Made by a program: the position numbers and the translations under genes. Source: an uncultured Clostridia bacterium (GTDB lineage Bacteria; Bacillota; Clostridia; CAKSNL01; HGM11501). From it: a DNA stretch of 64,000 nucleotides. Positions 9,567 to 28,892 of the stretch are shown piece after piece (position 1 is the first letter of the stretch; every line of letters begins with the position of its first letter). The notes beneath the pieces were generated by a model that saw only the letters and a list, made by a program, of their open reading frames with translations, was not told the origin of the DNA and did no database searches. The DNA lies in assembly GCA_934476235.1 (NCBI GenBank), contig CAKSNL010000001.1, positions 44,497-108,496 of the forward strand, read 5' to 3'.

Positions 9567-9904
9567 TTTTATCCCCCTTAAAATATTTTAAAATAAAATA
9601 AGCCATAGCCCGCAAAAAAGCCACAGCCAAAAATGATAGCACTCCGCCTTTTTGCGACAGTACAACGCATATTCTGCGCTGTCCCAACCTTAAAATACAA
9701 AGCAGGTATTAAAGGTTTCGGCGAAATCCCCTTTCAATCTCCGTTTTCTGCTTTAAATCTACGGAAAGCTACTTTTGTCATCCGCGCCTCTATCTTTTAT
9801 TTTTCCTTTATTTTACCACAACCGACATTTCCCGTCAAGCTTTTTATCGCGTTTTCGGAAATAATTTTTTTATCGGAATATGTCGGCAAACCTCAAGTTA
9901 ATGC

Positions 9905-10485: not shown

Positions 10486-11802
10486 ATGTATAACATCAAG
10501 GACTACGGAGCCAAAGAAGGCTCTCTTTCGACAAAAGCGATCCAGAGCGCAATCGACGCGGCGTATGAATCCGGCGGGGGAACCGTGTTCATTCCGGAAG
10601 GCACATTCATATCCGGCACTTTAATAATTAAAGACAATATTCACATTGTCTTTGAGAACGGAGCCGTGATTTTGGGCAGCGTCAACATGGAGGATTTTCT
10701 CCCCCGCGAGGAAAATCCCGACAACGATACATACCAGGATAAGAGCCACAGCTATTTTCACCACTCTTTGTTTTATGCCGATTCGTGCAGAAACATTTCG
10801 TTTTCCGGGCTCGGCAAAATTGACATGCAGTCGGTCTGGGAGCCGGACGGTTCATGGCAGAGAGCGGTTAAAATCTTCGCGCTTAAAAACTGCACCGACG
10901 TTGTGATAAAGGACCTTATTTTGCGCAACGCGACAGACCTTGCGGTTTATTTCGCCGGGTGCGAAAACGTTACGGTCACTCGCCTTAACATTTTAACGCA
11001 TATTGACGGGATAAGCCCCGATTCTTGCAAAAACGTTGTAATATCGGACTGCATTATAAATTCGGGGGATGACGGCATCGTCCCGAAAAGCTCCTTCACT
11101 CTGGGGCGCTTTGCGGCGATGGAAAACCTCACCATATCAAACTGCATAATCTCATCAAGATGCAACGCGATAAAATTCGGAACCGAATCCAACACCGCAT
11201 TTTTAAACGTCGCCATTACAGGCTGCACGATATATAACACAAGATTTTCGGGCATAACTCTTCAGGCGGTGGACGGAGCTTTGGTAAACGGCTTTTCCGT
11301 TTCCGGAGTCACCATGAAAAACGTCGGCAATCCCATAATGCTTATGGTGCTTGACAGAGGGCGGGCTCCCGAGGGCACTATAATCGGCGAGATCAAAAAC
11401 GTGTCGCTTGCGGGAATCACGGCAACCGGTCCTTACGAGCCGTGGGAGGCGCCGACCTGGAACTATAAATCACACATGGAGGACGATAAGGTTCAGCCTC
11501 CCGTTCCCGCTCCGGTCATCATCGCCGGTCAGCCGGACAGTATCATTAAAAACGTTTCTATGTCGGATATGATATTTTCAATGCCCGGCGGCGGAACGAA
11601 GGAGGACCGCGAAATAAAGCTTCCCACCGTGCGCGACGGATATCCCGAATCTATCCGGTTCGGGCGGAAAACCCCGTGCTACGGCATGATTGCGGTAAAC
11701 GTTGATAATTTAAGGCTTTATAACGTTGACTTTTCCACGGAAAAGGAGGACGCGCGCGATGAGGCGGTATTTATAAACGTCACACGCTACAAAAGAATAT
11801 AA
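10486..11802 (+). CDS. Glycoside hydrolase family 28 (polygalacturonase-like), no signal peptide
   Basis: N-terminus YNIKDYGAKEGS...GGGTVFIPEGTF and the beta-helix segment NCIISSRCNAIKFGTES are GH28 hallmarks. Confidence 0.75.
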   Translation: MYNIKDYGAKEGSLSTKAIQSAIDAAYESGGGTVFIPEGTFISGTLIIKDNIHIVFENGAVILGSVNMEDFLPREENPDNDTYQDKSHSYFHHSLFYADSCRNISFSGLGKIDMQSVWEPDGSWQRAVKIFALKNCTDVVIKDLILRNATDLAVYFAGCENVTVTRLNILTHIDGISPDSCKNVVISDCIINSGDDGIVPKSSFTLGRFAAMENLTISNCIISSRCNAIKFGTESNTAFLNVAITGCTIYNTRFSGITLQAVDGALVNGFSVSGVTMKNVGNPIMLMVLDRGRAPEGTIIGEIKNVSLAGITATGPYEPWEAPTWNYKSHMEDDKVQPPVPAPVIIAGQPDSIIKNVSMSDMIFSMPGGGTKEDREIKLPTVRDGYPESIRFGRKTPCYGMIAVNVDNLRLYNVDFSTEKEDARDEAVFINVTRYKRI

Positions 11803-11837
11803 AATAACGGCGGAGAATTTCTCCGCCGTTATTTTAC
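11803..11837. terminator. Bidirectional terminator hairpin (AATAACGGCGGAGAA/TTCTCCGCCGTTATT) between the convergent GH28 gene and the etf fusion gene
   Basis: Perfect 13-bp stem flanked by A and T runs. Confidence 0.75.
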
Positions 11838-13199
11838 TATGTCCCCGGCTTCGGCTATGATTCCGTAGTCCGAGTATTTAAAAATCGGAGCGTCTTTATC
11901 GGGGTTCACCGCAATAATTGTTCCCGCTCCCTCCACTGCGCACATGTGCTGAACCGCGCCGGAAATGCCGACGGCTATATATATCTTCGGCGCCGCCGTT
12001 TTCCCCGTGAGCCCTATCTGCTCTTCATAAGGCGCCATATCCATATCGACGGCGGCTCTTGACGCGCCCATCTGTGCGCCGAGCTTTTCTTTAAGTGCGC
12101 AAAGCTCTTTGTAATTTTCTGCCGCGCCGCGTCCCAAAGAAAGTATTATGTCCGCACTGTCGGACTCTGTTCTTACGGTCGCCATCTGCGGGTTCGTTCT
12201 GCACTCGATTTTTGCCGTAACGTCTCCGCCGAGCGCCGGGCGGTACATATAAAGCCTTTTTCCGTCCGTCTCAAGCGCCGTACAGTCCGCGCAAAGCCCC
12301 GTCTCAAGCATTGCCGCGGCAATCGGCGCGTCGCGCCGCGAGGTTAAGTCTGCGTTCCAGAGTATTACCTCCGGGCGCTCTTTTTTTGCCCGTTCGGCTA
12401 TTTTACGAGGGTCCTTTTCCTCGATAAATATGACGTTTTCGGCAATTGCAAGAGCCTGCTTGGAAACCTCTTTTCCTACCGCCCAGACCTCTTTTAATTT
12501 CTTCTTTGCCGGGGGGATATTTACCTCGATCCTCTTTTTCTTTGAAAGCTTTTCAACGAGCGGCAAAAATTCATCGGGCTTTATAAATTTGCACTTTCTT
12601 TCGCTCTCCTGCCTGTAAAAGGTTTTTATAACCTTTGTCGGCGAGCCCGAAAATCCGCATTTTTTCCCGTCCGCCGAAATATCATGGGCTCCGAGAACCG
12701 TTACGCTCCCCGCCTTCGAGCGAAAGCTCGGGAACCTTAAGTCAAACATTCTTTCGACAGTCACCAAAACCGGAGTTTTCGCCTTCATCTCTCCGAGCCT
12801 TGTTCTGCACGAAACCGTGCCGTTTTTTTCCGAGATATCCAAAGCGTACGCGATAACCGGAATCCCCAGCATTTCGGAAATGCACGGACCGACCTGTGCG
12901 GTGTCCGAATCGGTCGACTGCTTTCCGCAAAGAATAATATCATAATTTTCTCTTGCCAGCGCTTTTGATAAGACATATCCCGTCGCGAGCGTGTCGCTTC
13001 CGGCAAACGCCTTGTCGGTCAAAAGCACCGCACGGACGCCGAGCCTTGTAAGCTCTGTCAATTTGCTCTCAGCCGCGGCGGGCGCCATGGAATAGACCGT
13101 CACATCGTCGGACAGGCGGAGCGCCGCCTCTATCGCCGAGGAATCAAACGGGCTTATCTCGCCTTTAACGACCTTAACACATACCGCAATCTTCATCAT
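11829..13199 (-). CDS. Fused electron-transfer flavoprotein: EtfB-like N-terminal domain plus EtfA FAD-binding C-terminal domain in one polypeptide
   Basis: The N-terminal ~215 aa carry EtfB motifs (FAGSDTLATGYVL, ILCGKQSTDSDTAQVGP, GSPTKVIK). The C-terminal ~200 aa carry EtfA domain II motifs (ASRAAVD, PKIYIAVGISGAVQHMCAVEGAGTIIAVNPDKDAPIF). The ATG start overlaps the kinase stop as ATGA. Confidence 0.7.
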   Translation of the reverse strand: MMKIAVCVKVVKGEISPFDSSAIEAALRLSDDVTVYSMAPAAAESKLTELTRLGVRAVLLTDKAFAGSDTLATGYVLSKALARENYDIILCGKQSTDSDTAQVGPCISEMLGIPVIAYALDISEKNGTVSCRTRLGEMKAKTPVLVTVERMFDLRFPSFRSKAGSVTVLGAHDISADGKKCGFSGSPTKVIKTFYRQESERKCKFIKPDEFLPLVEKLSKKKRIEVNIPPAKKKLKEVWAVGKEVSKQALAIAENVIFIEEKDPRKIAERAKKERPEVILWNADLTSRRDAPIAAAMLETGLCADCTALETDGKRLYMYRPALGGDVTAKIECRTNPQMATVRTESDSADIILSLGRGAAENYKELCALKEKLGAQMGASRAAVDMDMAPYEEQIGLTGKTAAPKIYIAVGISGAVQHMCAVEGAGTIIAVNPDKDAPIFKYSDYGIIAEAGDIVK

Positions 13200-14668
13200 T
13201 CGCACCCGTGGTATATCGGCGCCAATGCGTCATGCACCTTTTTGTAGCGCTTATACTGCTCTTTATAGATTTCGTTATTCTTCATATCGGGCTCCGTCAC
13301 GAAAACCTCCTCGTTGCAGAATGACACCGCCTCGCACGGACTTAAGAAAAATCCCGCCGCAACGCCAGCCAGCATTGCGCTTCCGAATGACGAGTCGGAA
13401 TACTTTTTCCCGACGAGCGTTATGCCCAGCATATCCGCCGTGATTGAACGCCAGAGCGGGCTTTTTCCTCCGCCGCCGATTATTACCGCCGTTTCGTCAT
13501 GCGGAATACCGATTTTGCCGAGCGCGTCCATACAGTCCGCTATCGACATGGAAACGCCCTCCAAAAGCGCCCTCGTAAAATGCGCCTTCGTGTGGTTCGC
13601 GCGCACACCGATGAAGCTCGCCGATAAAAGCGGGTCGGCATACGGCGTCAGCTCTCCGTTAAGGTAGGGGTGAAACATCAGCCCCTCCGCTCCGGGCGCT
13701 ATTTTTTCCGCGCCTGAGTCAAGCGTCTTATAATCCTCCCCGAACGTGTCACGGTACCACCTGTAGGACGCGGCGCACGATTTTGTCGCCGTTCCGGGAT
13801 ACCACAGCCCGTCAATTATATGCGAATAGTTGATAAGGTTCTTATCGGGATACGACCTGTCCGTCACGACGCAGATGCGCCCGGCGGTCGCAAGCTTTAT
13901 TGTCATGTTTCCTTTTTTAACCGCGCCGGAGGCAAAAACCTCCATAACCGTGTCCGTCGTTCCGCATATTACCGCGGTGCCGGGATAAAGCCCCGTGTCC
14001 TTCGCCGCATTTTCCGTGACTGTGCCGACAACATCTTGAGGATTTACCGCCTCGGGCAATATCGCCTTGTCGATTCCCGCGGCAGCGCAAAGAACGTCCG
14101 ACCATTTCTTTTCGTTTAAGTCAAAGAGCATGCTGCCTTCCGCCTCTATATAATCCGTCACATAGTCACCGGTGAGGCAGTGGCGCACATAGTCCTTCGC
14201 AAAAAATATTTTTCTGATTTTACTAAAAATTCCGGGCTCGTTATTCTTTATCCAGAGAAGCTGCGGAAGCGTCCAGATGGTGTCAACATTATGAAGAGAG
14301 CGCTTTTTTATCTCCTCGCCGAGCGTTTCTTTAAGGCAGTCAACCTCTTTTTTGCTCCGCGTATCCGTCCAGTAAATCGAAGGCATGAGCACATTAAAAT
14401 CCTCATCCATTAACACTGCGGTATGCGTCGCCGCGTCAAGCGCAACCGCCTTTATATCGGCGGGGGAAACGCCGGAGGTCTTTATCACCGAGCGGATATT
14501 TTCCTTCGCAGCATTATACCAATCGTCCGGATTCTGCTCCACGTAGCCCGCCTTCGGGTAATATGTGGGATATTCGTACGACGCTTCCGCAACGATTTTT
14601 CCCTCTTCGGAAAGAAGCGTTGCCTTGGACGCGCCGCCGCCGAAATCTATACCGAGAGCATATCTCAT
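13196..14668 (-). CDS. FGGY-family carbohydrate kinase
   Basis: N-terminus YALGIDFGGGASKATL and a 490-aa length match the FGGY family. Confidence 0.8.
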   Translation of the reverse strand: MRYALGIDFGGGASKATLLSEEGKIVAEASYEYPTYYPKAGYVEQNPDDWYNAAKENIRSVIKTSGVSPADIKAVALDAATHTAVLMDEDFNVLMPSIYWTDTRSKKEVDCLKETLGEEIKKRSLHNVDTIWTLPQLLWIKNNEPGIFSKIRKIFFAKDYVRHCLTGDYVTDYIEAEGSMLFDLNEKKWSDVLCAAAGIDKAILPEAVNPQDVVGTVTENAAKDTGLYPGTAVICGTTDTVMEVFASGAVKKGNMTIKLATAGRICVVTDRSYPDKNLINYSHIIDGLWYPGTATKSCAASYRWYRDTFGEDYKTLDSGAEKIAPGAEGLMFHPYLNGELTPYADPLLSASFIGVRANHTKAHFTRALLEGVSMSIADCMDALGKIGIPHDETAVIIGGGGKSPLWRSITADMLGITLVGKKYSDSSFGSAMLAGVAAGFFLSPCEAVSFCNEEVFVTEPDMKNNEIYKEQYKRYKKVHDALAPIYHGCE

Positions 14669-14690: not shown

Positions 14691-14720
14691 AAAAAGCCCG
14701 GAATTGCTCCGGGCTTTTCA
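14691..14720 (-). terminator. Intra-operon hairpin (GCCCGGA...TCCGGGC) with a T-run on the minus strand, between the epimerase and kinase genes
   Basis: Inverted repeat flanked by A5 and T4-5. Possible partial terminator or attenuator inside the operon. Confidence 0.5.
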
Positions 14721-15590
14721 TTATTCTCCGAAGGTTATTTCGTGATAAAATTCCTTCGTCTTTCCTTTTTCCAATGCGGTTATCTCATCTTTTTCTTCTA
14801 TTTTGCCTGTCGAATCAACACTGTCGGGAAGTCCGCTCCACGGCTCGATACAGATATATCCGGCATCCGGGAACGACCAGATGACAAGATTCTTTTGCCC
14901 CGGGAACCGAACGCTCACTATCACTTCGCCGCTTTTATGCTTTAATGTGACAGACTCTGACAAAATGTCTTTAAATATCAGCGAATCTCTTTCTTTAAGC
15001 ATCCCGCCTGTTACCGAAAGCTCCTTCGTTCTCTCCGCCAAAAGCTCGCGCTTTCCGCTTAAGAGGGGACCTTCAAGCATATAATTAAAAAGCGTTTCTT
15101 CCTTTTCAAACTCAAAAACATAATCCTCTGTTTTTCCGGGGCAGGCATAACCTTCATGCGAGCCCGCCGAAAAATACATCGTCTTATCATCCTTGTTTTC
15201 CACACGGTATGTAACGCCGAGCGTATTGCCCGAAAGACTGTAAATGACCGAAAAGCCGTATAAGAACGGATAGCTTTCCTTGTACTTATCAAGACCCTTT
15301 GCACAAAATACAGCTTCGCTTTCGCTTATTTTTTCGGGCTCATAGTCCAAAAAACGCGCAAAGCCGTGCTTTGTCATTTCATAGCTTTTGCCGGACAGGG
15401 TGTATCTCCCGTCCTTTAACGCGCCGCAGACAGGGAAAACGATAGGTGCGTGAAAGCCCCAGACCGACTTATCGCCGCTCCACATATATTCTCTTCCCGT
15501 TTTGTCCGTCACGCTCGCAATTTCTGCGCCGAAATTTTTGATCTTAACTTTAAGGACTCCATTTTCGATTACGGTTATTTCGTCAGCCAT
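14721..15590 (-). CDS. Aldose 1-epimerase (mutarotase) family protein
   Basis: 289-aa product with the segment WSFPDAGYICIEPWSG, typical of the mutarotase family. A GAGGAGGA RBS lies upstream. Confidence 0.65.
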   Translation of the reverse strand: MADEITVIENGVLKVKIKNFGAEIASVTDKTGREYMWSGDKSVWGFHAPIVFPVCGALKDGRYTLSGKSYEMTKHGFARFLDYEPEKISESEAVFCAKGLDKYKESYPFLYGFSVIYSLSGNTLGVTYRVENKDDKTMYFSAGSHEGYACPGKTEDYVFEFEKEETLFNYMLEGPLLSGKRELLAERTKELSVTGGMLKERDSLIFKDILSESVTLKHKSGEVIVSVRFPGQKNLVIWSFPDAGYICIEPWSGLPDSVDSTGKIEEKDEITALEKGKTKEFYHEITFGE

Positions 15591-16363
15591 TTATGATCCT
15601 CCTCGGTAGTCATGAAAAATCCTCTGTTTTCGCCAGCCATTATCCAAAGGTAATAGTTGTTGTATCCGGGCGCCGCACAGCAGGGGTGATATCCTCTCGG
15701 AATCTCAACGAAATCGCCGCCGCGTACGGTATAGGTCTCGTCAATATCGCCCTCTTTTGTGTATACCTTCTGAATTCCGAAGCCCTGGGGCTTGTCGTAC
15801 TCATAATAGTAAACTTCCTCCAAAACGCCCTCTGTCGGCATATTGTCATCGTCATGCTTGTGAGGAGGATAGCTTGCCCACTGTCCGCCCTCGACATATG
15901 CCTCGCCGATGTAAATGAGGTTTGCCTTTACTCTCTCATCCAAAATAAAGTGCGCCTGTCTTCTCCAGCCGGGCTTGCCCATATCCTTGATTATCACGTC
16001 CTCGGGCTTAACCAAAACGGGCTCAAAGTCCTTCAGAGCGGGAGACTTGCAGACAGCGATCGTCACATCGCCCACACCGGTAACGGTGAACTTTCTGTTT
16101 CTCGGAACATAAAGGCAGGTTGCCGCTCCGTCAAAAGCGTTCTTTCTTTTGCCGATCTCGGTAAATTCAAACCCGTCGCCCTTGACCGTGCACTTTCCGC
16201 CGATAATTAAGAGTCCGTACTCTTTATCCTTTTCGGAATATGTTTTCGTTCCCCCGTCGGGAAGCTTTAACATATCGACCTCAATCATATTAAGCGATGA
16301 ATTTTCCTTAGTGATGACCGCGGCTTTGCCGTACTCATTTTTCCAGGTCTTCTTTAAATTCAT
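15575..16363 (-). CDS. iolB: 5-deoxy-glucuronate isomerase (KduI/IolB family, IolB-like)
   Basis: The C-terminal segment ASYPPHKHDDDNMPTEGVLEEVYYYE...GFGIQKVYT...IDETYTV closely resembles B. subtilis IolB. Confidence 0.8.
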   Translation of the reverse strand: MNLKKTWKNEYGKAAVITKENSSLNMIEVDMLKLPDGGTKTYSEKDKEYGLLIIGGKCTVKGDGFEFTEIGKRKNAFDGAATCLYVPRNRKFTVTGVGDVTIAVCKSPALKDFEPVLVKPEDVIIKDMGKPGWRRQAHFILDERVKANLIYIGEAYVEGGQWASYPPHKHDDDNMPTEGVLEEVYYYEYDKPQGFGIQKVYTKEGDIDETYTVRGGDFVEIPRGYHPCCAAPGYNNYYLWIMAGENRGFFMTTEEDHKWLTK

Positions 16364-17267
16364 TATAACCCAACTCCTTTAAAAATTCAATAACTTTTTT
16401 ATACTCGGGAACCGCGCTTCTCGCGCCGAGCTTTGTGCACTTAAGCGCAGATACGGCGCTTGAAAAAATGCAGCATTTATACATGTCAAACCCCTTCGCA
16501 AGTGCAAAGGCGAAAGCGCCGTGGAAAACATCGCCCGCGCCGTTGGAGTCAACGACCTCGGCGGGAAGCGCCGGGTATGACCTTACATTGTCGCCGTCAT
16601 ACATAATGCCGCCCTTTTTGCCCTGCGTTATGACAACTACTTCGGGGCGGTACGCCTCGTAAAGCGCCCTTGCCGCATCTTCCGCCGTTTCCTTTTTCGT
16701 AAATCCGAGTGCAAATTCCTCCGACGGAATCAAAATATCCGCATACTTTATTAAATTCTCCACGCCGTCATATAATCCTCCGGCGTCGTACAAAACCTTT
16801 GTACCGGACTCTTTTGCGAAACGGGCGCCCTCTGTCGCCGCGTCCATCTCATTGCCGTCTATCATTAATATGTCCGCCGCTTTTATTTCGTCCTTCTGCT
16901 CAGGAGAAAGCTTAAGCGGAGGAATATCGCCCCTGTAAAACACGCAGGTTCTCGTTTTCTCCTTTTCGCTTAAGAAAATGCACGAAGAAAACGACGAAAA
17001 TCCCGATGCGACATTGACCTTTGACGTGTCAACGCCGTACTTTTCCATATCGGCTTTTAAGAATATTCCCGGAGCATCCGTCGTCAGCGCTCCCAGATAC
17101 GACACATTTGCTCCGAGCTTTGCCGCCGCGACAAGACCCGTCGCGGTCGGTCCCCCTCCGGATGAAACGGCGCTCTTCGCGCGCTTTTTCGTGTCCTCAT
17201 CCGGGTACGAGTCAACGGTATAGAGCGTGTCATATACATTGGCGCCTATGCCTGTTATCCTCATCAT
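16335..17267 (-). CDS. PfkB-family sugar kinase (IolC-like 5-dehydro-2-deoxygluconokinase candidate)
   Basis: Ribokinase-fold motifs, including the NGAGD anion hole. Sits between iolB and the aldolase gene. Confidence 0.65.
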   Translation of the reverse strand: MMRITGIGANVYDTLYTVDSYPDEDTKKRAKSAVSSGGGPTATGLVAAAKLGANVSYLGALTTDAPGIFLKADMEKYGVDTSKVNVASGFSSFSSCIFLSEKEKTRTCVFYRGDIPPLKLSPEQKDEIKAADILMIDGNEMDAATEGARFAKESGTKVLYDAGGLYDGVENLIKYADILIPSEEFALGFTKKETAEDAARALYEAYRPEVVVITQGKKGGIMYDGDNVRSYPALPAEVVDSNGAGDVFHGAFAFALAKGFDMYKCCIFSSAVSALKCTKLGARSAVPEYKKVIEFLKELGYNEFKEDLEK

Positions 17268-18091
17268 GCCTTGTTTTCAGCTCCTAACAGTCTGATTTTC
17301 GACTTTGCAAATTCGCCCACATTTTTGATTGCATCCTTCATAAAGAGGTCGATGGCAATCTTTTCTCTCGAGGTCTCAAAAACCTTGTCAAGGAACGAAT
17401 AGCAAAGATCCGTGCCGAAGTTAATCTTTCTGATTCCGGCATTGACCGCCGCCTTTATCTGATCGTCCGGCACACCGCTTCCGCCGTGCAGTACAAGCGG
17501 AATTCCCGTAAGCTCTTTTATCTTCGAAATTCTCTCAATGTCAAGCTTGGGAGCCTTTTTATATCTTCCGTGAGCCGTGCCGACCAAGATTGCAAGCGCG
17601 CTGACGCCTGTCGCGTCAACATATGCCTTTGCCTCTCCGGGGTCGGTAAACTCCGCCATTGACTCGTCATTTACAGAGCCGATATGTCCCAGCTCGCCCT
17701 CGACCGGAACGCCGACGTGAGCGCAAAGCTCAGCCACGCGCGCGGTATAGCTCTTGTTTTCCTCAAACGGAAGGCTGGACGCGTCAATCATAATGCCGGT
17801 CGCGCCGTAGGTGAGCGCTCTTACGACCTCGTGCTCCGACGCGCCGTGGTCCAGGTGGAAGCAAACCGGAACCTTTGCCTTTTTTGCCGCCGCCAAAACT
17901 ATGGGAGCAAGGAAATATGCCTCTTCGTTTGTGAAAAGTCTTGAATAAGACTGTAATATTACCGGAGCGTTAAGCTCCTCCGCCGCGTTGATAACGCCCA
18001 TTACGGTCTCCATATTGTACACGTTGAATGCCGGGATCGCGAAATTTCCTTTTTCCGCGATGGCAAGTATCTCTTTAAGATTTACAAGCAT
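17264..18091 (-). CDS. Class II aldolase of the FbaA/GatY/IolJ family
   Basis: N-terminal segment IPAFNVYNMETVMGVINAAEE...PVILQ and an HLDHG metal site. Confidence 0.75.
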   Translation of the reverse strand: MLVNLKEILAIAEKGNFAIPAFNVYNMETVMGVINAAEELNAPVILQSYSRLFTNEEAYFLAPIVLAAAKKAKVPVCFHLDHGASEHEVVRALTYGATGIMIDASSLPFEENKSYTARVAELCAHVGVPVEGELGHIGSVNDESMAEFTDPGEAKAYVDATGVSALAILVGTAHGRYKKAPKLDIERISKIKELTGIPLVLHGGSGVPDDQIKAAVNAGIRKINFGTDLCYSFLDKVFETSREKIAIDLFMKDAIKNVGEFAKSKIRLLGAENKA

Positions 18092-19179
18092 TTTACAATT
18101 GCCTCCTCAAGTGTCAGAATTTCAATTCCCTTTTCTTTAAGCTCTTTTAATGCCAGATATTCCGCCGGAGACGCGGTAACAAGCTTCTTTGTGCCAACGT
18201 GAAGTGCGTCCGCCATTCTTCTTTTGGCAACAAGCTTCATAACGTCCGGCATATAAGCCTTCATTACGGGGTGTCCCGCAATCATCGTGTCGCGTCCGGT
18301 CATAAGCATCTCGCCGGTTTTTCCGAGCGCGGAAAGTATGCTTCTCGCCGGCTTTGTCTCCTCAAGGTCGCGCGCAAGATGTGCGGGATCCTGGAACACA
18401 AATTCGTCCTTCGTCTTTTTAACGCCGAGCTTTTTGCCGGAGATAAGCTCCGACAAAAACGCAGTATATGTAACGGGCTTTGCCGAAAGCGCGATGTTCC
18501 ACTCCTTGTATTCGCGCATGAACACCTTAGCGTCCGCCGGGTCGTATGCCACGATTTTTTTAGCGCCGGTGTTCTTTATTGCAGCCGCAGCCTTCTCCAT
18601 TGCCTCTCTGGTCTCAGCCGCCGCGCCCAAAAGGAAGTCATAAGCATATCCGGAGTCGGGCTCGTTCTTCATTACCGTGAAATCGACTCCCGCTTTCTTT
18701 AAGAGCTCAATTGCCTCTATTGCGTTAGCCGGAGCATTGCAGCGTGCGTCGCTTCCCAAAAAGAGGAGTACCTCCGCCTTCTCGGGAAGAGTCTCAATCT
18801 CGGCTTTAAGCTTCTTATCCAAAGTCTTTTTACCGTAAACGTTACCGGTCTTTTCAAGATTTGTGATGAGCTTTTCTATGTACTCGGGCATAACGCCGTC
18901 CATCGCCGCGGCAAGGCGTGCCTCCTTGGTGAATATAACGGGATCCCAGCCTGTCGCGCACTCCTTTGTGCATCCGCCGCAAAGCGCGCACTCGTATAAA
19001 TTGTCAACAACGTCGGAAAGCTTTGCCGAGTCTCTTACGACCATCGAAAGAGAAAGTGCTCTCGCTCTTGCCGTGTTTCTCTCCTGTCCCGTCGCGTTGC
19101 CGATGGGGCAAATATGGCGGCACATCCAGCAAAATCTGCATGCGTCAACCGTTTTTCTGCTTTTTTCAGATAACTGCAT
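18082..19179 (-). CDS. 4Fe-4S dicluster domain protein (GlcF/LutB-like electron-transfer subunit)
   Basis: Two CxxCxxCxxxCP motifs (CRFCWMCRHICP and CALCGGCTKEC) followed by a ~260-aa cysteine-poor domain. Confidence 0.6.
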   Translation of the reverse strand: MQLSEKSRKTVDACRFCWMCRHICPIGNATGQERNTARARALSLSMVVRDSAKLSDVVDNLYECALCGGCTKECATGWDPVIFTKEARLAAAMDGVMPEYIEKLITNLEKTGNVYGKKTLDKKLKAEIETLPEKAEVLLFLGSDARCNAPANAIEAIELLKKAGVDFTVMKNEPDSGYAYDFLLGAAAETREAMEKAAAAIKNTGAKKIVAYDPADAKVFMREYKEWNIALSAKPVTYTAFLSELISGKKLGVKKTKDEFVFQDPAHLARDLEETKPARSILSALGKTGEMLMTGRDTMIAGHPVMKAYMPDVMKLVAKRRMADALHVGTKKLVTASPAEYLALKELKEKGIEILTLEEAIVKCL

Positions 19180-19194
19180 ATCGCTTCCTCCTTC

Positions 19195-20616
19195 TTATAA
19201 ACCGAGCTTGAACGGATTCATGATTCCGTTGGGATCAAGCTGTTTCTTAATTCCTTCAAATACCTGCATTGCGGGACCGTACTGCTCCTTCATGAGTCTG
19301 CCGAGCTTGATGCCGACGCCGTGGTGGTCGTTAACGACACCGCCGTTTGCGATAGCCGTGCGCACACCGCAGCTCCAGATAGCGTTATGAAGTCTTAACG
19401 CCTCGTGAGGATCTGCCGGAACATCGTCAACTATGAATCTGTCGTAAACCATTGCGCCCCACTCGTACCAGTGCGAGAAGTGAGCGATAAAGCGCGCCAT
19501 CGGGAAATTCTCCTCGATTGCCTTTTTCATTGCCCAGTATATTTTTTCAATCTTGTCGTAAGGAGCGATCGTATCCATGGTTCCGAACATCTGCGGAAGG
19601 TCCATCATATGACCGGGATAGAAGAATGTGATCTTCTCGTCCCACCACTTTTTACCGTACTCGCTGCCTAAGTCCTCTGCTCCGTACTTTTTAACGAAGG
19701 TATCCAAAAGAATCTTCTCTTCAACCGCGACAAGCTCGGAAACGCCCTCGATAGCCACGTTCATAAACGCGCCCTTCTTCTCAACGCCGACAATCTTTTT
19801 GATAAGCGTGGAGGTCTCCGCCTCGTCGTAAAGACGCATAACGGAGGGCTTGAACTTCTGGAGCAGCTCGCGCGCGCCGTTGAACGCGTCGCTCATATTC
19901 TTGAATAAGAATCCGCGGAAGCGTCTTTCCTCGGGCATATCGTAAATTCTCATCTGAGCCTTTGTGATAATACCGAGCGTGCCCTCGGAGCCGATGAATA
20001 TCTGGTTAAGGTCGGGACCTGCCGCATGCTTGGGAGCCGGCGATGTCTCGATAATGTCGCCGTTCGGGAGCACGACCTCCATTTGAAGCGTCATATCGTC
20101 AATCTTTCCGTATTTCGTGGAAACGACGCCGATACCTCTGTGAGCCAAAAAGCCGCCGACCGTTGAACATGTAAGTGAGCTGGGATAGTGCATCGTAGCA
20201 TATCCTCTTTCGTTTGCTGCCCATTCGATGTGCTTATAGATGGCGCCCGTTCCGCACTCTATGTACATTCCCTGTTCGTTGATGTCATAAATCTTATCCA
20301 TTCTCTTGGTATCCAATACGATACCGCCGCAAACGGGAATGGCGCCGCCCTGCGTTCCGCCGCCGCCGCCCCATGCGGTCACGGGAATCTTATAGTAGTT
20401 TGCAATCTTTAATACGTTGGAAACCTCTTTTGCGTCCTTGGGCGATACAATGATCGCTCCCTCGGGCATTCTCTCCCCGCGGTCAGCCCACATTCTTGAA
20501 AGCCAGAAGTAGTCCACGCTGTGAGATATCTTGTCTATCGTGCGTGTCGAGCAGTTTTCTCTGCCGACCGCGTCCTCAAGCTCGGACGCGATCATATCAA
20601 ATAAAAAATCGTTCAT
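19195..20616 (-). CDS. FAD-linked oxidase (GlcD / D-lactate dehydrogenase family)
   Basis: FAD_binding_4 type N-domain (WGGGGGTQGG) and an FAD-oxidase C-terminal domain ending HHGVGIKLG...MNPFKLG. Confidence 0.8.
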   Translation of the reverse strand: MNDFLFDMIASELEDAVGRENCSTRTIDKISHSVDYFWLSRMWADRGERMPEGAIIVSPKDAKEVSNVLKIANYYKIPVTAWGGGGGTQGGAIPVCGGIVLDTKRMDKIYDINEQGMYIECGTGAIYKHIEWAANERGYATMHYPSSLTCSTVGGFLAHRGIGVVSTKYGKIDDMTLQMEVVLPNGDIIETSPAPKHAAGPDLNQIFIGSEGTLGIITKAQMRIYDMPEERRFRGFLFKNMSDAFNGARELLQKFKPSVMRLYDEAETSTLIKKIVGVEKKGAFMNVAIEGVSELVAVEEKILLDTFVKKYGAEDLGSEYGKKWWDEKITFFYPGHMMDLPQMFGTMDTIAPYDKIEKIYWAMKKAIEENFPMARFIAHFSHWYEWGAMVYDRFIVDDVPADPHEALRLHNAIWSCGVRTAIANGGVVNDHHGVGIKLGRLMKEQYGPAMQVFEGIKKQLDPNGIMNPFKLGL

Positions 20617-20639: not shown

Positions 20640-22043
20640 TTATTCTTCGATCGGGTCAAATTCAAGACCCGGAATGAACTTGCAGAATTCCTTAAGCACA
20701 TCGGCATACGTTCCGTATATCTCGCTCATGTGGTGTATGTAAGGACCCTCGATGAGCTTTCTTTCAAGCTTTGAAAGATCGGAAAACTCAGCCCACATAT
20801 GCGTTCCGAAGGTGTGGGGTCCGTCCGTCGTCTTAAAGTTTCCGCCAAGAAGCGTGTAGCGCCCCGCCTCTCCCTGGAAGCGCGCGATGGTGTATTCTCC
20901 GTCCTTCGCTCTGAAGCTCGGCTTCGTGTTCCAAAGCTCCGCCTTCACGCCCTCTTTCTTAACCGAATACGGGAACGGACCGCAGTGCCACAAAAGCTCG
21001 GCGTTCTTATTTTCGGGATGGCGCACGGTGAATTCTCCGAAGGTCGGCGCGTCCTCTCCGCGTGCGGCGCACATTAATATCGCCTGGCTGATCGCGCCGT
21101 GAATGTCCGACTCACAGGCAACGATATAGCCCATATCATACAAAATGCTCATCGCAAGGCACGGATTTGCGCGGAACGCCAAGGGCATGCTCGTCCAGCA
21201 CTCGGAAGCCAGAACCGAGGCTTTCGTGTCGTTAAATATCTCAATATACGCATAAACGAACGTCAGCATTCTCTTAAGCGTTTCATCGTCAAGATTCTTA
21301 ACGTCGTAAAGCTCCTTTAAGCGCACAAGATCCTCCTTAAGCTCCTTTGCCTTTTCTTCGTAGAGCCTTTCGAGCTTTTTCTCCATAACCGTCATGTTAA
21401 CGGTGTTTAAGTTGATTCCGAACTTTTCGGTCAGCTCCAGCTCGTTTGACATAACGCTCTTGAACGGGTCAAGCCTCGTTCCGACCATGGTTACGCGCAA
21501 GGTCTTAAAGTTTTTGACCATTGTGGCAACCGACAAAAACTTTTTAACGCCGTCTGAGAAAACGCCGTCCGTCATGCGGCAGTTCTCAATGTAGGAAAAC
21601 GGCACCCCGAGGCGCTTTAACTGCTTGCTTATTGCAAAAAGTCCACACTGGCAGTCGGTGTATCTTCCGCCGTCCGGCTCAAACACATCGTCCAGCGGTC
21701 CCCACAAAAGAACCGGAACGCCCATAAGCTTTGCGACCTGACCCGCCGCCTCTTCGCTTCCGAAGTTGCAGTTGATTAAAAATACCGCGTCAACCCCCTC
21801 CGCTTTGAAACGCTCCGCAACGCGCGGCGCGTCATACGGGTCATACAAAAGCCCTTCTTCATTTAAAAATGCAAGATCCGTAAACTCCGTCTTGTCGTCG
21901 GAAAAGCTTTCCTTTATGTAAGGAAGTACTTTTTCCTTGTTTTCCCACGCCTTTTTCGGTTCAAATATTCCCTTTCTGGTCGCGGCGTCAGCCAAATGGC
22001 GGCGCATGGGAATAAGCCCGATTTTTAATTTATAGTCAAGCAT
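20640..22043 (-). CDS. L-fucose/L-arabinose isomerase family protein
   Basis: 467-aa product resembling the short fucose-isomerase-like family of Firmicutes. It is the first gene of the operon and has the RBS AAAGGAAAGAGGGAG. Confidence 0.5.
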   Translation of the reverse strand: MLDYKLKIGLIPMRRHLADAATRKGIFEPKKAWENKEKVLPYIKESFSDDKTEFTDLAFLNEEGLLYDPYDAPRVAERFKAEGVDAVFLINCNFGSEEAAGQVAKLMGVPVLLWGPLDDVFEPDGGRYTDCQCGLFAISKQLKRLGVPFSYIENCRMTDGVFSDGVKKFLSVATMVKNFKTLRVTMVGTRLDPFKSVMSNELELTEKFGINLNTVNMTVMEKKLERLYEEKAKELKEDLVRLKELYDVKNLDDETLKRMLTFVYAYIEIFNDTKASVLASECWTSMPLAFRANPCLAMSILYDMGYIVACESDIHGAISQAILMCAARGEDAPTFGEFTVRHPENKNAELLWHCGPFPYSVKKEGVKAELWNTKPSFRAKDGEYTIARFQGEAGRYTLLGGNFKTTDGPHTFGTHMWAEFSDLSKLERKLIEGPYIHHMSEIYGTYADVLKEFCKFIPGLEFDPIEE

Positions 22044-22273: not shown

Positions 22274-23110
22274 ATGGATAAAACTCTTTTGAAAATACAG
22301 GTTTTATATAACGATATGGGAAAGTCGGAAAAGAAGATTGCGGACTATATCCTATCAGACCCCGGCGCCCTCTTGCCCCTTTCCATAACGGATCTGGCGG
22401 ACAGGAGCAACAGCAGCGAGGCAACCATCGTGCGCTTTGCAAAAAGGCTCGGGCTCTCGGGCTATCAGGAGCTTAAGATAACGCTTGCCCAGGAAAGCGG
22501 AAAGGCGGCAAACACGCACGATATTGATATTGACGATTCGCTTTCCGAAATATATGACAAGGTCACGAGCGACATTTACCGTTCTCTTGAGATGACGAAA
22601 AAATCGCTTAGTCCCGAGGAGCTTACCGCCGCTGCCGAAGCGGTGCTCTCCGCCGGCAAGGTCGTCATCTTCGGTCTGGGCAATTCCGCCTCCGTCGCGG
22701 CGGACGCGGGGCACAAATTCTTCCGCGCCGGGATCGACGCGGCGGCGTATTCGGACAACCACATGCAGGCTATCGCCGCGTCGCACCTTAAAGAGGGGGA
22801 CGTTGCCATCGGCATATCTCATTCCGGTTCCTCGCGCGATATTGCGGACGCGTTAAAGATTGCGCGCGAGCATAACGCCAAAACTATCGCCATCACAAAC
22901 AAGGGCAGATCACCCGTCGCCGGAATGGCGGATTTAAAGCTTTTCACCGCGTCGCAGGAAACGGAGTATACTATTTTGGGCTTAAACTCCAGAATTGCCG
23001 CCCTCGCGATAATCGACACGATATATTCCTACATCGTGTGCCACAAAAAGGGTGACGCGCTCTCTGCCATAGCGAATGTGGAGGACGCGTTAAAGAGTAA
23101 GAAATATTAA
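22274..23110 (+). CDS. MurR/RpiR family transcriptional regulator (HTH plus SIS domain)
   Basis: N-terminal HTH (ATIVRFAKRLGLSGYQELK) and a C-terminal SIS sugar-phosphate-binding domain. Confidence 0.85.
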   Translation: MDKTLLKIQVLYNDMGKSEKKIADYILSDPGALLPLSITDLADRSNSSEATIVRFAKRLGLSGYQELKITLAQESGKAANTHDIDIDDSLSEIYDKVTSDIYRSLEMTKKSLSPEELTAAAEAVLSAGKVVIFGLGNSASVAADAGHKFFRAGIDAAAYSDNHMQAIAASHLKEGDVAIGISHSGSSRDIADALKIAREHNAKTIAITNKGRSPVAGMADLKLFTASQETEYTILGLNSRIAALAIIDTIYSYIVCHKKGDALSAIANVEDALKSKKY

Positions 23111-26883: not shown

Positions 26884-27840
26884 ATGTTAAAGAAAATATC
26901 CGAAATCGGCATTGTCCCGGTCATCAAGATTAATGACGCGGAAAAGGCAGTTCCGCTTGCAAAAGCGCTGATTGACGGCGGTCTCCCCATCGCGGAAATC
27001 ACGTTCCGTACGGACGCGGCGGAGGAGTCGATAAGACGTGTGAGCGCGGCATTCCCCGAAATGCTCGTCGGCGCCGGCACGGTACTGACCGTTGAGCAGG
27101 CAAAGCGCGCGAAGGACGCGGGCGCAAAATTCATCGTCAGCCCCGGCTTCAATCCCAAGGTCGTTTCCTGGTGCCTTGAAAATGACATTACTCCCACACC
27201 CGGCTGCACATCGCCCTCCGAGATCGAGGCGGCGCTTGAGCTCGGGCTTAAGGCGGTAAAGTTCTTCCCGGCTGAGCAGAGCGGCGGAATCGCAAAGATA
27301 AAGGCGCTCTCCGCTCCCTATTCCGGTCTTAAATTCATCCCGACCGGCGGAATAAGCCTTGACAATCTGACTTCATACATAACCAATAAAAAGATATTGG
27401 CATGCGGCGGAAGCTTCATGGTAAAGGAGGACTACATCAATAATTGTGAGTGGGACAAGATTACCGAGCTTACCAGAAAGTCGGTAAACGTTATGCTCGG
27501 GCTTGAGATAGGTCACATCGGCATTAACGCCCGGAGCAATTCCGAGGCTGAAAGCATTGCCGACCGTTTCTCGCTCCTTTTCGGAAACGCAGAAAAGAGA
27601 ACCACGTCCAAGAGCATATTCGCGGGCGACTCGATCGAGGTCATGCTCCCCGAAGGAAGAGGCAAAAACGGTCACATCGCTATTTTAACAAACTCGGTTG
27701 ACAGAGCGTGCTACCACCTCGGAAAGCAGGGCTTCTCGTTCGATACCGACAGTGCCAAATATAATGACGACGGCTCGCTCAAATTCATATACTTCAATGA
27801 TGAAATCGGCGGCTTCGGCGTTCACCTTGTTCAGAGATAA
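26884..27840 (+). CDS. eda: KDPG/KHG aldolase (Eda) fused to a C-terminal ~100-aa VOC/glyoxalase-like domain
   Basis: The first ~210 aa match KDPG aldolase (VIKINDAEKAVPLAKAL, GAGTVLT, FIVSPG). The tail HIGINARS...SIEVMLPEGRG...HIAILT resembles a VOC fold. Confidence 0.8.
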   Translation: MLKKISEIGIVPVIKINDAEKAVPLAKALIDGGLPIAEITFRTDAAEESIRRVSAAFPEMLVGAGTVLTVEQAKRAKDAGAKFIVSPGFNPKVVSWCLENDITPTPGCTSPSEIEAALELGLKAVKFFPAEQSGGIAKIKALSAPYSGLKFIPTGGISLDNLTSYITNKKILACGGSFMVKEDYINNCEWDKITELTRKSVNVMLGLEIGHIGINARSNSEAESIADRFSLLFGNAEKRTTSKSIFAGDSIEVMLPEGRGKNGHIAILTNSVDRACYHLGKQGFSFDTDSAKYNDDGSLKFIYFNDEIGGFGVHLVQR

Positions 27841-27863
27841 AATAAAGAGAGGAATCACATAAA

Positions 27864-28892
27864 ATGAAAAAGATAGTTACACTCGGCGAAATTATGCTTC
27901 GCTTAAAATCACCCGCATTCGAAAGATTCATGCAGACTCCGGCGCTTGAGGCGACCTTCGGAGGCGGAGAGGCTAACGTTGCCGTTTCGCTCGCAAATTA
28001 CGGAATGGATGCAAAATTCGTTACCGCGCTCCCGAAAAATGACATTGCGGACGCGCTTGTCCGCGAGCTCCGCGGCTTCGGAGTTGACGTGTCGGATATT
28101 GCATATACCGACGGAAGGCTCGGCATCTACTATCTTGAGTCGGGTACAAACCAGCGCCCCTCCAAGGTAATATATGACAGAGCATATTCCGCAATTTCGC
28201 TTGCGACTCCCGGGACCTTTGATTTTGGCAAGGTTTTCGAAGGTGCGGACTGGTTTCACATCACCGGCATCACCCCCGCTCTTTCCCAGAGTGCGGCTGA
28301 CCTTTCCATAGCGGCAGTCAAGGCGGCAAAGGAAATGGGGCTCACCGTCTCGTGCGACTTAAACTACAGAAAGAACCTCTGGAAGTACGGTAAAGAGGCG
28401 CGCGAGGTTATGAGCGAGATCGCACGCTATGTGGATGTACTCATCGCCAACGAGGAGGACTGCCAGAAGTCTCTCGGAATCGAGAACAACGCCGAGGTTA
28501 CAAGCGGAGTGCTTGATACCAAGAAATACGAGGAGCTTGCCAAGAACGTTCTTTCGGCATATCCCAACGCTTCGAAAATTGCAATCACTCTGCGTGAGAG
28601 CAAGAGCGCAAGCCACAACGACTGGTCCGCCTGCATCTCGGACGGCAAGGAGTTCTACGTTTCCAAGAAGTACGAAATCAAGAACATCGTTGACAGAGTC
28701 GGCGGCGGCGACAGCTTCGGCGCGGGTCTTATCTACGGTCTTTTAAATTACGGCGATGATAAGAAGGCGCTTGAATTCGCGGTTGCGGCAAGCTGCTTAA
28801 AGCACACCATCTCCGGCGACTTTAACCGTGTCAGCGTCAAAGAGGTTGAGTCTCTTATGGGAGGCGACGGCTCGGGAAGAGTTCAGAGATAA
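27864..28892 (+). CDS. kdgK: 2-dehydro-3-deoxygluconokinase (PfkB family)
   Basis: KdgK-like N-terminus ([12 protein letters not shown]) and a [10 protein letters not shown] anion-hole motif. Sits directly downstream of eda. Confidence 0.8.

Follow-up and report, generated by a model that had tools for sequence, protein, structure and literature searches.

What is oxidized by a flavoenzyme that is encoded in a sugar operon together with an iron-sulfur (Fe-S) protein and an electron transfer flavoprotein (Etf), and where do its electrons go? This question is raised by a locus of an uncultured Clostridia bacterium, which lies in a 64,000-nucleotide stretch of DNA (contig CAKSNL010000001.1, positions 44,497 to 108,496; the whole stretch is called the window here) that is about 94% identical to the human-gut metagenome-assembled genome (MAG) HGM11501. 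An original prediction, made from the letters of the window, had placed an FAD-linked oxidase and an Fe-S protein in open reading frames (ORFs) at 19195-20616 and 18082-19179 on the minus strand, and had likened them, with the Etf, to lactate, glycolate and other hydroxyacid dehydrogenases. The coordinates are exact and the proteins have 473 and 365 amino acids, respectively. We find that the three redox proteins form a conserved unit, as had been proposed, and that the active site of the flavoenzyme (FADox hereafter) is of the alkyl-dihydroxyacetone phosphate (alkyl-DHAP) synthase type rather than the metal-dependent D-2-hydroxyacid type. The reading that we favor, and to which we give about an even chance of being correct, is that of a dehydrogenase, coupled to the Etf and possibly confurcating, which acts on a sugar or polyol phosphate made by a kinase.

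The operon consists of nine tightly packed minus-strand genes that overlap or are separated by no more than 52 nucleotides. As predicted, it is a sugar operon and its last gene encodes an Etf, here an EtfB-EtfA fusion that is followed by a strong terminator. From the regulator to the terminator, the features are:

22274..23110, plus strand: RpiR/MurR-family regulator (HTH_6 and SIS domains by Pfam), divergent and upstream of the operon
20640..22043, minus strand: fucose-isomerase-family aldose-ketose isomerase of 467 amino acids, the first gene of the operon, with a weak Fucose_iso_C match
19195..20616, minus strand: FADox, a flavoenzyme of the VAO/PCMH fold, 473 amino acids (Pfam and Protein Data Bank (PDB) alignment)
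18082..19179, minus strand: Fe-S partner, 365 amino acids (Pfam Fer4_8, AlphaFold (AF2) model, Foldseek)
17264..18091, minus strand: class II (FBA/TBA/IolJ-type) ketose-phosphate aldolase (Pfam F_bP_aldolase, 1.4e-87)
16335..17267, minus strand: PfkB-family sugar kinase, ribokinase/IolC-like (Pfam PfkB, 1.5e-45)
15575..16363, minus strand: IolB/KduI-family cupin aldose-ketose isomerase (TIGR04378, 257 bits against a cutoff of 205)
14721..15590, minus strand: aldose 1-epimerase (mutarotase), accessory (Pfam Aldose_epim)
14692..14718, no strand assigned: palindromic hairpin with a perfect 11-base-pair stem (AAAAGCCCGG...CCGGGCTTTT), from a scan for terminator-like structures
13196..14668, minus strand: XylB-like FGGY carbohydrate kinase (TIGR01312, 389 bits against a cutoff of 380)
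11829..13205, minus strand: single-chain EtfB-EtfA fusion (two Pfam ETF matches and ETF_alpha)
11799..11837, minus strand: intrinsic terminator with an 18-base-pair stem and a T-run, closing the operon after the Etf gene

FADox is an FAD-linked oxidase, as predicted, with Pfam matches to FAD_binding_4 (1.9e-34) and FAD-oxidase_C (2.8e-21), and it shares its fold with the LctD-type dehydrogenase subunit. Its closest PDB matches are alkyldihydroxyacetonephosphate synthases (ADPS; 2uuu at 1e-38 and 4bby at 1e-36), with D-lactate dehydrogenase (LDHD, 5e-31) and glycolate oxidase and LctD (about 1e-27; 2.8e-27 for LctD, 7qh2_C) ranking lower. The catalytic residues of ADPS, which we take to be Arg419, Tyr578 and the His616/His617 loop, were reportedly assigned by Nenci et al. 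in 2012. R261 and Y391 of FADox align to the positions marked by the ADPS mutants 4bc7 (R419H) and 4bca (Y578F), the ADPS loop sHHHGVG aligns with nDHHGVG of FADox (H431 and H432), and the Dictyostelium ADPS segment AHiSHtYtnGvclYfiF aligns with AHFSHWYEWGAMVYDRF. The resulting ADPS-type set of R261, H379, H382, Y391, H431 and H432 is invariant in 66 family members. The alignment between the two enzymes begins at ADPS residue 139 (Dictyostelium) or 202 (guinea pig), the N-terminal ADPS domain being absent from FADox. The metal at the substrate site of LctD has His377, His384 and Glu422 as its ligands, with the catalytic His423 next to them (PMC9232219). By alignment, the metal-ligand positions of LDHD fall on H379, Y391 and H431 of FADox and the catalytic His is H432, such that only the first ligand of the LctD/LDHD triad is kept, Tyr391 and His431 standing at the equivalents of His384 and Glu422. 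Likewise, the GlcD equivalog models score FADox below their cutoffs (TIGR00387, 184.5 bits against 567.9; PRK11230, 98 against 897) and the names given by the sources are all generic, so that neither protein of the pair is claimed by a well-characterized family of known substrate. A 2-hydroxyacid is thus an unlikely substrate on sequence grounds, because two of the three metal ligands are gone and the GlcD models are far below their cutoffs; a lactate or glycolate dehydrogenase was set aside on the same evidence. The likeness to hydroxyacid dehydrogenases in the original prediction has to be given up in view of these ligand replacements, the ADPS catalytic residues and the link to a sugar kinase described below. 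By analogy with ADPS, a DHAP-like or sugar-phosphate end on the substrate would be the better lead.

FADox is also the most constrained protein of the cassette. Its median identity to the window protein is 87.7%, Planctomycete copies included, as against 56% for the Fe-S protein, 55% for the Etf and 61-68% for the other enzymes, and its mean column identity is 92.6% compared with 67.6% for the Etf. Between Clostridia and Planctomycetia (loci L001-L086) FADox is 82-90% identical and the other cassette proteins 40-68%. No explanation that we tried accounts for this constraint; many protein interfaces or a demanding chemistry are candidates.

The second protein of the pair retains an electron-transfer part and has lost another. 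Searches with profile models, which matched FAD_binding_4, FAD-oxidase_C and Fer4-type domains in the pair, confine the matches of the Fe-S partner (Fer4_8 and Fer4_17) to residues 11-77, and no CCG domain (PF02754) was found in it by Pfam. Two CxxCxxCxxxCP clusters had been predicted. Both motifs are present (C14, C17, C20 and C24; C64, C67, C70 and C74), the closing CP holding for the first of them and being replaced by CA in the second. The remaining stretch of about 290 residues contains only C147 and C364, in agreement with the predicted cysteine-poor domain. The eight cubane [4Fe-4S] cysteines are invariant in 19 sequences, and no other cysteine is. An AF2 model of the protein (predicted local distance difference test (pLDDT) 87, predicted template modeling score (pTM) 0.88) finds as its best Foldseek match the soluble part of Mycobacterium smegmatis EtfD (9ojn, E 1.8e-12, query TM-score (TMq) 0.77), the alignment spanning only that part of the 742-residue target (target TM-score (TMt) 0.40); LutA and then HdrB come next. 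EtfD, which accepts electrons from ETF, contains two cubane clusters as well as two CCG domains whose clusters are unusual, and a link to Etf is shared by its homologues FadF and DgcB (PMC13083937). NCBIfam matches of the partner to TfrB, DsrK, GlpC, LdhH and GlcF are all far below cutoffs, and by eye no long hydrophobic segment is visible in its 365 residues. Alignment with the canonical partners of related flavoenzymes shows that the window protein has other residues at all ten CCG cysteine positions:

canonical FVGC: S143
canonical CCG (first): D175-S176
canonical CPxC (first): D213..D216
canonical DPC: A266
canonical CCG (second): I300-A301
canonical CPxC (second): S337..E340

The polar replacements S176, D213 and D216 are themselves invariant. 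By the model and these alignments, the partner takes the EtfD/HdrD/GlpC fold, in which both cubane [4Fe-4S] sites are kept and the CCG domains are without clusters. The statement that it is not a canonical GlcF or LutA therefore holds, the fold being kept and the CCG cysteines all gone.

The EtfB-EtfA fusion is read as an ORF of 458 amino acids from a GTG (VRMMKIAV...); its real start is probably the ATG at 13196 (455 amino acids), which overlaps the end of the FGGY gene, because a 100%-identical database protein (P0121) has 455 residues. It is made up of EtfB (residues about 1-230), EtfA domain I (about 235-345) and the a-FAD domain (about 346-458), and aligns with EtfB and EtfA of the bifurcating 4KPU, 5OL2, 6FAH, 7KOE and 7QH2 (3e-27 for LctB against the EtfB part). 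Its AF2 model (pLDDT 89) superposes on both Etf subunits in Foldseek, with 28-34% identity to bifurcating Etfs and 16-23% to non-bifurcating ones. Signatures of bifurcating Etfs have been defined experimentally for Ldh-EtfAB (PMC9232219). Among 55 fusions, the b-FAD motif D(G/S)DTAQVGP is present in 53-55 by position, with Val in 48 (the window protein has DSDTAQVGP); the SPT anchor of the EtfB arm has S in 55, P in 54 and T in 55; the EtfA Arg that contacts N5 of b-FAD (R322 of RPAxGG) is found in all 55; and the TGLCADCT segment of domain I occurs in 50-55 by position. The F/Y and the G of the RxFxG NAD+ motif are kept in 52 and 54, respectively. By these signatures the Etf appears to be a compact single-chain version of the bifurcating type, and their pattern in the 55 fusions makes a second flavin likely and coupling to NAD(H) uncertain.

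How far these genes belong together was assessed from their distribution. The Fe-S partner has more than 2361 homologues (E<=1e-5 among 8000 candidates scored), and those that carry names are all called '(Fe-S)-binding protein' or 'Fe-S oxidoreductase'. For the cassette, a scan of one genome per species returned at least 549 species genomes, the best 80 of which are all MAGs of gut or rumen Clostridia (Oscillospiraceae-like, Ructibacterium, Fimenecus and 'Ruminococcus sp. RUG') and Planctomycetia/Thermoguttaceae; the sample origins of cassette genomes include Hadza and other human, goat, deer, yak and horse. Full-text literature searches found no paper describing the cassette. Forty-one related loci have enough flanking DNA for synteny counts: FADox is present in 41/41, IolB in 40/41, the FGGY kinase, aldolase and PfkB kinase in 39/41 each, and the Etf fusion in 38/41. 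With FADox, FGGY kinase and Etf fusion recurring at these frequencies, the arrangement of FADox, Fe-S and Etf genes is far from chance. The fucose-isomerase-like gene (31/41) is optional; the RpiR regulator is found in 28/41 loci, DUF4867 in 25/41 and the epimerase in 9/41, and in many cassettes DUF4867 stands in place of, or besides, the epimerase. In two minimal cassettes, L013 and L016, the genes for EtfBA, FADox, the Fe-S partner and the FGGY kinase are the only members, which marks these four as the core; in L016 an RpiR gene adjoins and housekeeping genes lie on the flanks.

Some cassettes are larger. Nine loci (L020, L037, L063, L085, L012, L014, L061, L072 and L038) carry extra genes between IolB and FGGY or EtfBA, for NagA (above cutoff), N-acylglucosamine 2-epimerase, a divergent NagB-like protein, a GKRP/MurQ-like double-SIS protein of about 560 amino acids, a PMI-like cupin or an M20 amidohydrolase; these hint at a side entry for amino sugars or ether sugars. 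Planctomycete (Thermoguttaceae) cassettes are split between PfkB and IolB by unrelated genes, namely one for a SIR2_2-domain protein (L027:13101-14696) and those for an MscS-like channel and a DUF4838/GH67N protein (L059:12885-17296).

An exhaustive search of 50%-identity representatives placed the next FADox clusters at 55%, 47% and 40-42% identity, and all those inspected carry ADPS-like motifs; the relative at 55% (P0241) is named 'alkyldihydroxyacetonephosphate synthase' by IMG. The trio of XylB-like FGGY kinase, FADox and partner recurs in relatives at 55%, 41%, 41% and 40%:

P0241: LacI, FGGY, FADox, a 372-amino-acid partner, MFS, KduI, PfkB, FucI-like protein and aldolase; no Etf
P0243: FADox, partner, FGGY, GFO oxidoreductases, inositol-phosphate-synthase-like gene, PfkB, SIS and ABC transporter; no Etf
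P0247: FGGY, FADox and CCG protein
P0249: FADox, CCG protein, two dehydrogenase genes and ABC transporter, then the FGGY gene, which closes the same cluster at its far end

The P0241 locus also adjoins two Pect-lyase_RHGA_epim proteins. Partners among the FADox relatives range from fully canonical (L087, L092 and L093) to nearly cysteine-free (L088 and L095); the latter (L088:10113-11159 and L095:5030-6328) lack most of the cubane cysteines, yet keep the FQD and SPxE/D motifs of the cluster-less CCG domains. Two fusions with ADPS-like motifs were also found, one of FADox with Fer4 and two CCG domains (P0282) and one of a PfkB kinase with FADox (P0331). The P0331 locus (L095) encodes DeoR, the PfkB-FADox fusion, a degenerate partner, a DeoC-type aldolase, a cupin phosphoglucose-isomerase-like protein, a ROK kinase and an ABC sugar transporter, and hence the function set of the window operon (two kinases, cupin isomerase, aldolase, FADox and partner) built from non-orthologous parts. 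Together, the conserved trio, the two fusions and the P0331 locus argue that FADox and its partner form a complex, that the substrate is the product of a kinase, and that the two kinases, the isomerase, the aldolase and FADox make up one pathway. Because FADox is linked most tightly to the XylB-like FGGY kinase and has a relative fused to PfkB, a phosphorylated sugar or polyol is a better guess for the substrate than lactate, glycolate or glycerate. Furthermore, the Etf is confined to the gut Clostridia/Planctomycete form, the one whose partner has lost the CCG clusters, which agrees with a soluble Etf having taken over the electron output from a route through CCG clusters or quinone.

The remaining enzymes were compared with known sugar pathways. 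The FGGY kinase has xylulokinases as its top PDB matches and scores 154 bits with the GlpK model (cutoff 590). The fucose-isomerase-like protein scores 109 bits with the SftI model (cutoff 700), and no PDB sequence match was found for it; it is possibly of the XylA-II type, for which there is a precedent (PMC2873477). Clostridial XylA-II, CAC2611 and XylB make up a xylose module that has been validated or proposed in Clostridium (PMC2873477, PMC6158908), and the fucose-isomerase-like protein, the DUF4867/mutarotase gene and the XylB-like kinase resemble that module; the function of DUF4867 is not known (PMC11968277). The PfkB kinase reaches 107 bits with the IolC model (cutoff 300). IolG, IolE and IolD are absent from the operon, and GFO_IDH_MocA is found in the Planctomycete versions only. 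A full inositol pathway was set aside as unlikely on this evidence, IolB alone being above its cutoff and the aldolase a generic class II enzyme. A glycerol kinase with a glycerol 3-phosphate dehydrogenase, an attractive idea because the partner is GlpC-like and the flavoenzyme site of DHAP type, is disfavored by the kinase scores, and glycerol 3-phosphate is kept as one candidate substrate only. Two further candidates were also dropped: a sulfoquinovose pathway, as the SftI-like match is weak and transaldolase and sulfolactaldehyde genes are lacking, and an amino-sugar or N-acetylmuramic acid route, as genes of the NagA, AGE, NagB-like and MurQ/GKRP-like kinds are confined to some of the variants.

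Based on these results we propose the following route. The substrate would be a sugar or polyol phosphate formed by a kinase; the simplest candidates are an alditol phosphate and a ketose phosphate that ends like DHAP. FADox, in complex with the Fe-S partner, would take two electrons from this compound. They would move by way of the two [4Fe-4S] clusters to a-FAD, the mobile flavin of the Etf fusion, and, at b-FAD, would be combined with an electron from reduced ferredoxin to reduce NAD+, a confurcation as in Ldh-EtfAB. Such an arrangement would offer quinone-free fermenters a sink for a couple near -190 mV, with the same logic as GlpK/GlpD and EryA/EryB. Triose phosphates would then be made from the oxidized sugar phosphate by the IolB-like cupin isomerase, the PfkB kinase and the class II aldolase in turn, and the matching free aldose could enter the same route through the fucose-isomerase-like protein, the mutarotase or DUF4867, and the FGGY kinase.

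Several observations weigh against this proposal. In the RxFxG motif the Arg, present in all five solved bifurcating EtfBs, is variable in the fusions (S in 16, K in 12, N in 7, P in 6, and others); EtfB lacks the N-terminal hairpin that follows VCxKxV; domain I has become shorter; and Pfam finds no ferredoxin (Fer4) domain on the EtfA part. For these reasons NAD-linked confurcation is not secured. Bifurcation or confurcation is plausible from the signatures and unproven because of the Arg; most bifurcating signatures bear out the predicted Etf-dependent, perhaps bifurcating, character, and the NAD motif is kept in part. It is also the case that relatives at 41-55% identity have no Etf nearby, that in some of these the partner has kept few or none of its Fe-S cysteines, and that the Fe-S protein of the window may sit either between FADox and the Etf or on a low-potential ferredoxin branch. 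The latter placement would suit a reductive direction, in which NADH would drive a bifurcating reduction of a high-potential, sugar-derived carbonyl or enone phosphate at FADox and reduced ferredoxin would be formed via the Fe-S protein, on the model of the caffeyl-CoA or crotonyl-CoA reductase-Etf complexes. The Etf has bifurcating-type signatures, Ldh-EtfAB is reversible, and the two-cluster Fe-S protein could provide a low-potential branch as do EtfX/FixX or the ferredoxin domain of CarE (PMC9232219). However, neither a dehydratase nor any other step from which a high-potential acceptor would arise is encoded in the cassette, the Arg of the NAD motif varies, and the canonical relatives pair FADox with CCG-type partners that are typical of substrate-oxidizing, quinone-linked dehydrogenases; we give this direction a slight chance. 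Bifurcating-type signatures would also suit an Etf-coupled D-lactate, glycolate or glycerate dehydrogenase of the LctD/GlcDEF type that clears a hydroxyacid by-product of the sugar pathway. FADox has the Pfam architecture of GlcD and LctD and matches LctD and LDHD in the PDB, and some variants encode a MurQ-like double-SIS protein, the canonical MurQ reaction releasing D-lactate. The replaced metal ligands, the low GlcD scores beside the better match to ADPS, the tight link to a sugar kinase with the kinase fusion, and the restriction of MurQ-like genes to few variants make such an activity highly improbable.

The position of FADox relative to the kinase is a more serious matter. Since the kinase scores as XylB, FADox could act before it and convert a polyol to D-xylulose. 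FADox, the Fe-S protein and the Etf would then oxidize a free polyol (xylitol or D-arabitol) to a ketose (D-xylulose) for phosphorylation by the XylB-like kinase, the fucose-isomerase-like protein and the mutarotase would feed xylose to the same kinase, and IolB, PfkB and the aldolase would be a separate branch. The score of the kinase above the XylB equivalog cutoff, its best PDB matches, the equally XylB-like trio kinases of distant relatives and the Clostridium xylose module of FucI-family isomerase, DUF4867 and xylB all agree with this, and the minimal cassettes would be self-sufficient, as the product xylulose 5-phosphate is a central metabolite. In contrast, the oxidation of a polyol to a ketose is normally coupled to NAD and does without an Etf, a phosphorylated substrate is indicated by the ADPS-type site and by the PfkB-FADox fusion, the presence of IolB, PfkB and aldolase in 39-40/41 loci argues for a single pathway, and the relative at L095 shows the two-kinase architecture again. 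We regard this order of steps as unlikely, though not to be dismissed lightly. A further difficulty is that ADPS itself is non-redox. Because relatives at 41-55% identity lack an Etf nearby, and the partners of L088 and L095 have lost most cubane cysteines and kept CCG-domain motifs, the partner may have a conserved role other than electron transfer, or the ancestral reaction may need no external acceptor. FADox might then use covalent flavin-N5 chemistry to exchange or remove a group (ether or ester) next to a sugar-phosphate carbonyl, the Fe-S protein and the Etf serving only to keep or restore the flavin redox state and the cluster-less CCG domains binding substrate or taking part in catalysis. 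All four ADPS catalytic residues are conserved and invariant, FADox is extremely conserved, S176, D213 and D216 are invariant polar residues at replaced CCG positions, and relatives use partners without Fe-S cysteines and have no Etf nearby; yet the Etf in 38/41 loci and the retained cubane sites argue for a real electron flux, and canonical relatives own complete electron-transfer partners, which leaves a purely non-redox enzyme hardly probable. We give a small chance to an intermediate form, in which FADox would carry out ADPS-type enolization and form a flavin-N5 adduct on a sugar phosphate, the CCG domains would have turned to substrate binding or catalysis, and electrons would go to a minimal single-chain bifurcating Etf; an alpha-alkoxy or alpha-hydroxy ketone, such as that of a methylated or anhydro plant-fiber sugar, could be oxidized or oxidatively cleaved in this way.

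The cassette occurs in several hundred or more uncultured gut and rumen species of Clostridia and Planctomycetia, and its three redox proteins are without a studied member. If the proposed oxidation of a sugar or polyol phosphate is correct, Etf-based confurcation would extend from lactate and acyl-CoA metabolism to sugar- and polyol-phosphate oxidation, which would explain how quinone-less fermenters manage an oxidation that respiring bacteria hand to the respiratory chain, and a function would be available for bacterial proteins annotated as 'alkyl-DHAP synthase', '(Fe-S)-binding protein' and 'FAD-binding protein'. If ADPS chemistry is retained instead, both the enzyme reaction and the means by which strict fermenters handle methylated or anhydro-type sugars would be new. 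Unusual features of the module are a flavoenzyme conserved at nearly 90% across phyla, a partner that has lost every CCG cluster, and a compact Etf in a single chain.

As for control and surroundings, the RpiR/MurR-family regulator is likely, from its family, to place the operon under phosphosugar-sensing control. The hairpin at 14692-14718 lies between the epimerase and FGGY genes, in a 52-nucleotide gap that is the one intergenic space of any size in the operon and that directly precedes the FGGY-EtfBA pair, and may be an internal attenuator or an RNA-processing site. Pectin/uronate-type genes lie around the operon (10486-11802, plus strand; 23626-26472, minus strand; 26884-28892, plus strand). 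A GH28/rhamnogalacturonase-like beta-helix protein gene is convergent with the Etf gene, and nearby are a secreted protein of 948 amino acids, internally duplicated and carrying a pectate-lyase-like adhesive domain, and a pair of 2-keto-3-deoxy-6-phosphogluconate (KDPG) aldolase and KdgK-like PfkB kinase. A pectin or xylan context was considered for the cassette as a whole and not adopted, as GH28, GH10, GH31, GH42 and GH67N-like neighbors recur, none of them consistently. Farther off, a full-length lysine riboswitch (RF00168, 103 bits; 9629-9800, minus strand) is found 5′ of the ORF at 7818-9566 (minus strand), which encodes a 582-amino-acid membrane protein of the Na_H_antiporter (NhaC) family, presumably a lysine-regulated transporter.

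Comparison with known systems shows which parts of the module are familiar. Ldh-EtfAB (LctBCD) of Acetobacterium woodii (PDB 7QH2) likewise has a VAO-fold FAD_binding_4/FAD-oxidase_C dehydrogenase that is encoded with an Etf and has an Fe-S relay, the same b-FAD motif (DGDTAQVGP), SPT anchor and N5-contacting Arg, and a fermentative, anaerobic host. In the module, however, the site is of the ADPS type with a broken metal triad, the NAD-motif Arg is not conserved, the Etf is one fused chain without the N-terminal ferredoxin domain and the EtfB hairpin, the Fe-S centers are on a separate HdrD-like protein, and the genes are tied to sugar kinases and an aldolase rather than to lactate genes. More generally, bifurcating (group 2) Etfs have separate EtfA and EtfB, some with an N-terminal ferredoxin domain, whereas the module has a single chain of 455/458 amino acids. 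ADPS/AGPS (2UUU and 4BBY) share with FADox the equivalents of Arg419, Tyr578, His616 and His617 and the Dictyostelium AHxSHxY...Y segment; FADox differs in lacking the N-terminal 140-200 or so residues and in belonging to a bacterial sugar-catabolic operon with Fe-S, Etf and kinase genes and no lipid context. Mycobacterial EtfD (9OJN), FadF and DgcB, a family that works with Etf, have two cubane domains followed by two CCG-fold domains as does the Fe-S partner, which in contrast has no membrane/heme-b domain and no D1 or D2 clusters, is soluble and is always encoded beside the flavoenzyme. GlcDEF, GlpABC/GlpC, LutABC, LdhH, TfrB and YdiJ similarly pair a flavin dehydrogenase with a two-[4Fe-4S] CCG-domain protein (fused to it in some relatives), but in the module the CCG clusters are lost, the flavin site is of ADPS rather than GlcD type, and the output is probably the Etf instead of a quinone or membrane partner. 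In GlpK/GlpD and in EryA/EryB of Brucella, an FGGY kinase is followed by a flavin dehydrogenase that acts on the polyol phosphate. The module shares the tight linkage of an FGGY kinase to a flavin-dependent, NAD-independent dehydrogenase; its flavoenzyme is of the VAO and not the DAO/GlpD fold, its electrons would go to an Etf and not to the respiratory chain, and its kinase is XylB-like and not GlpK-like by the scores given above. Each comparison thus fails on a defining feature: the LctD metal triad, a two-subunit Etf with a ferredoxin domain, the CCG cysteines, the EtfD membrane domain, or the ADPS N-terminal domain and lipid context. By analogy, the module would work as an Etf-coupled flavin dehydrogenase that mixes pairs of the GlcDEF/GlpABC type with Etf partners of the EtfD type.

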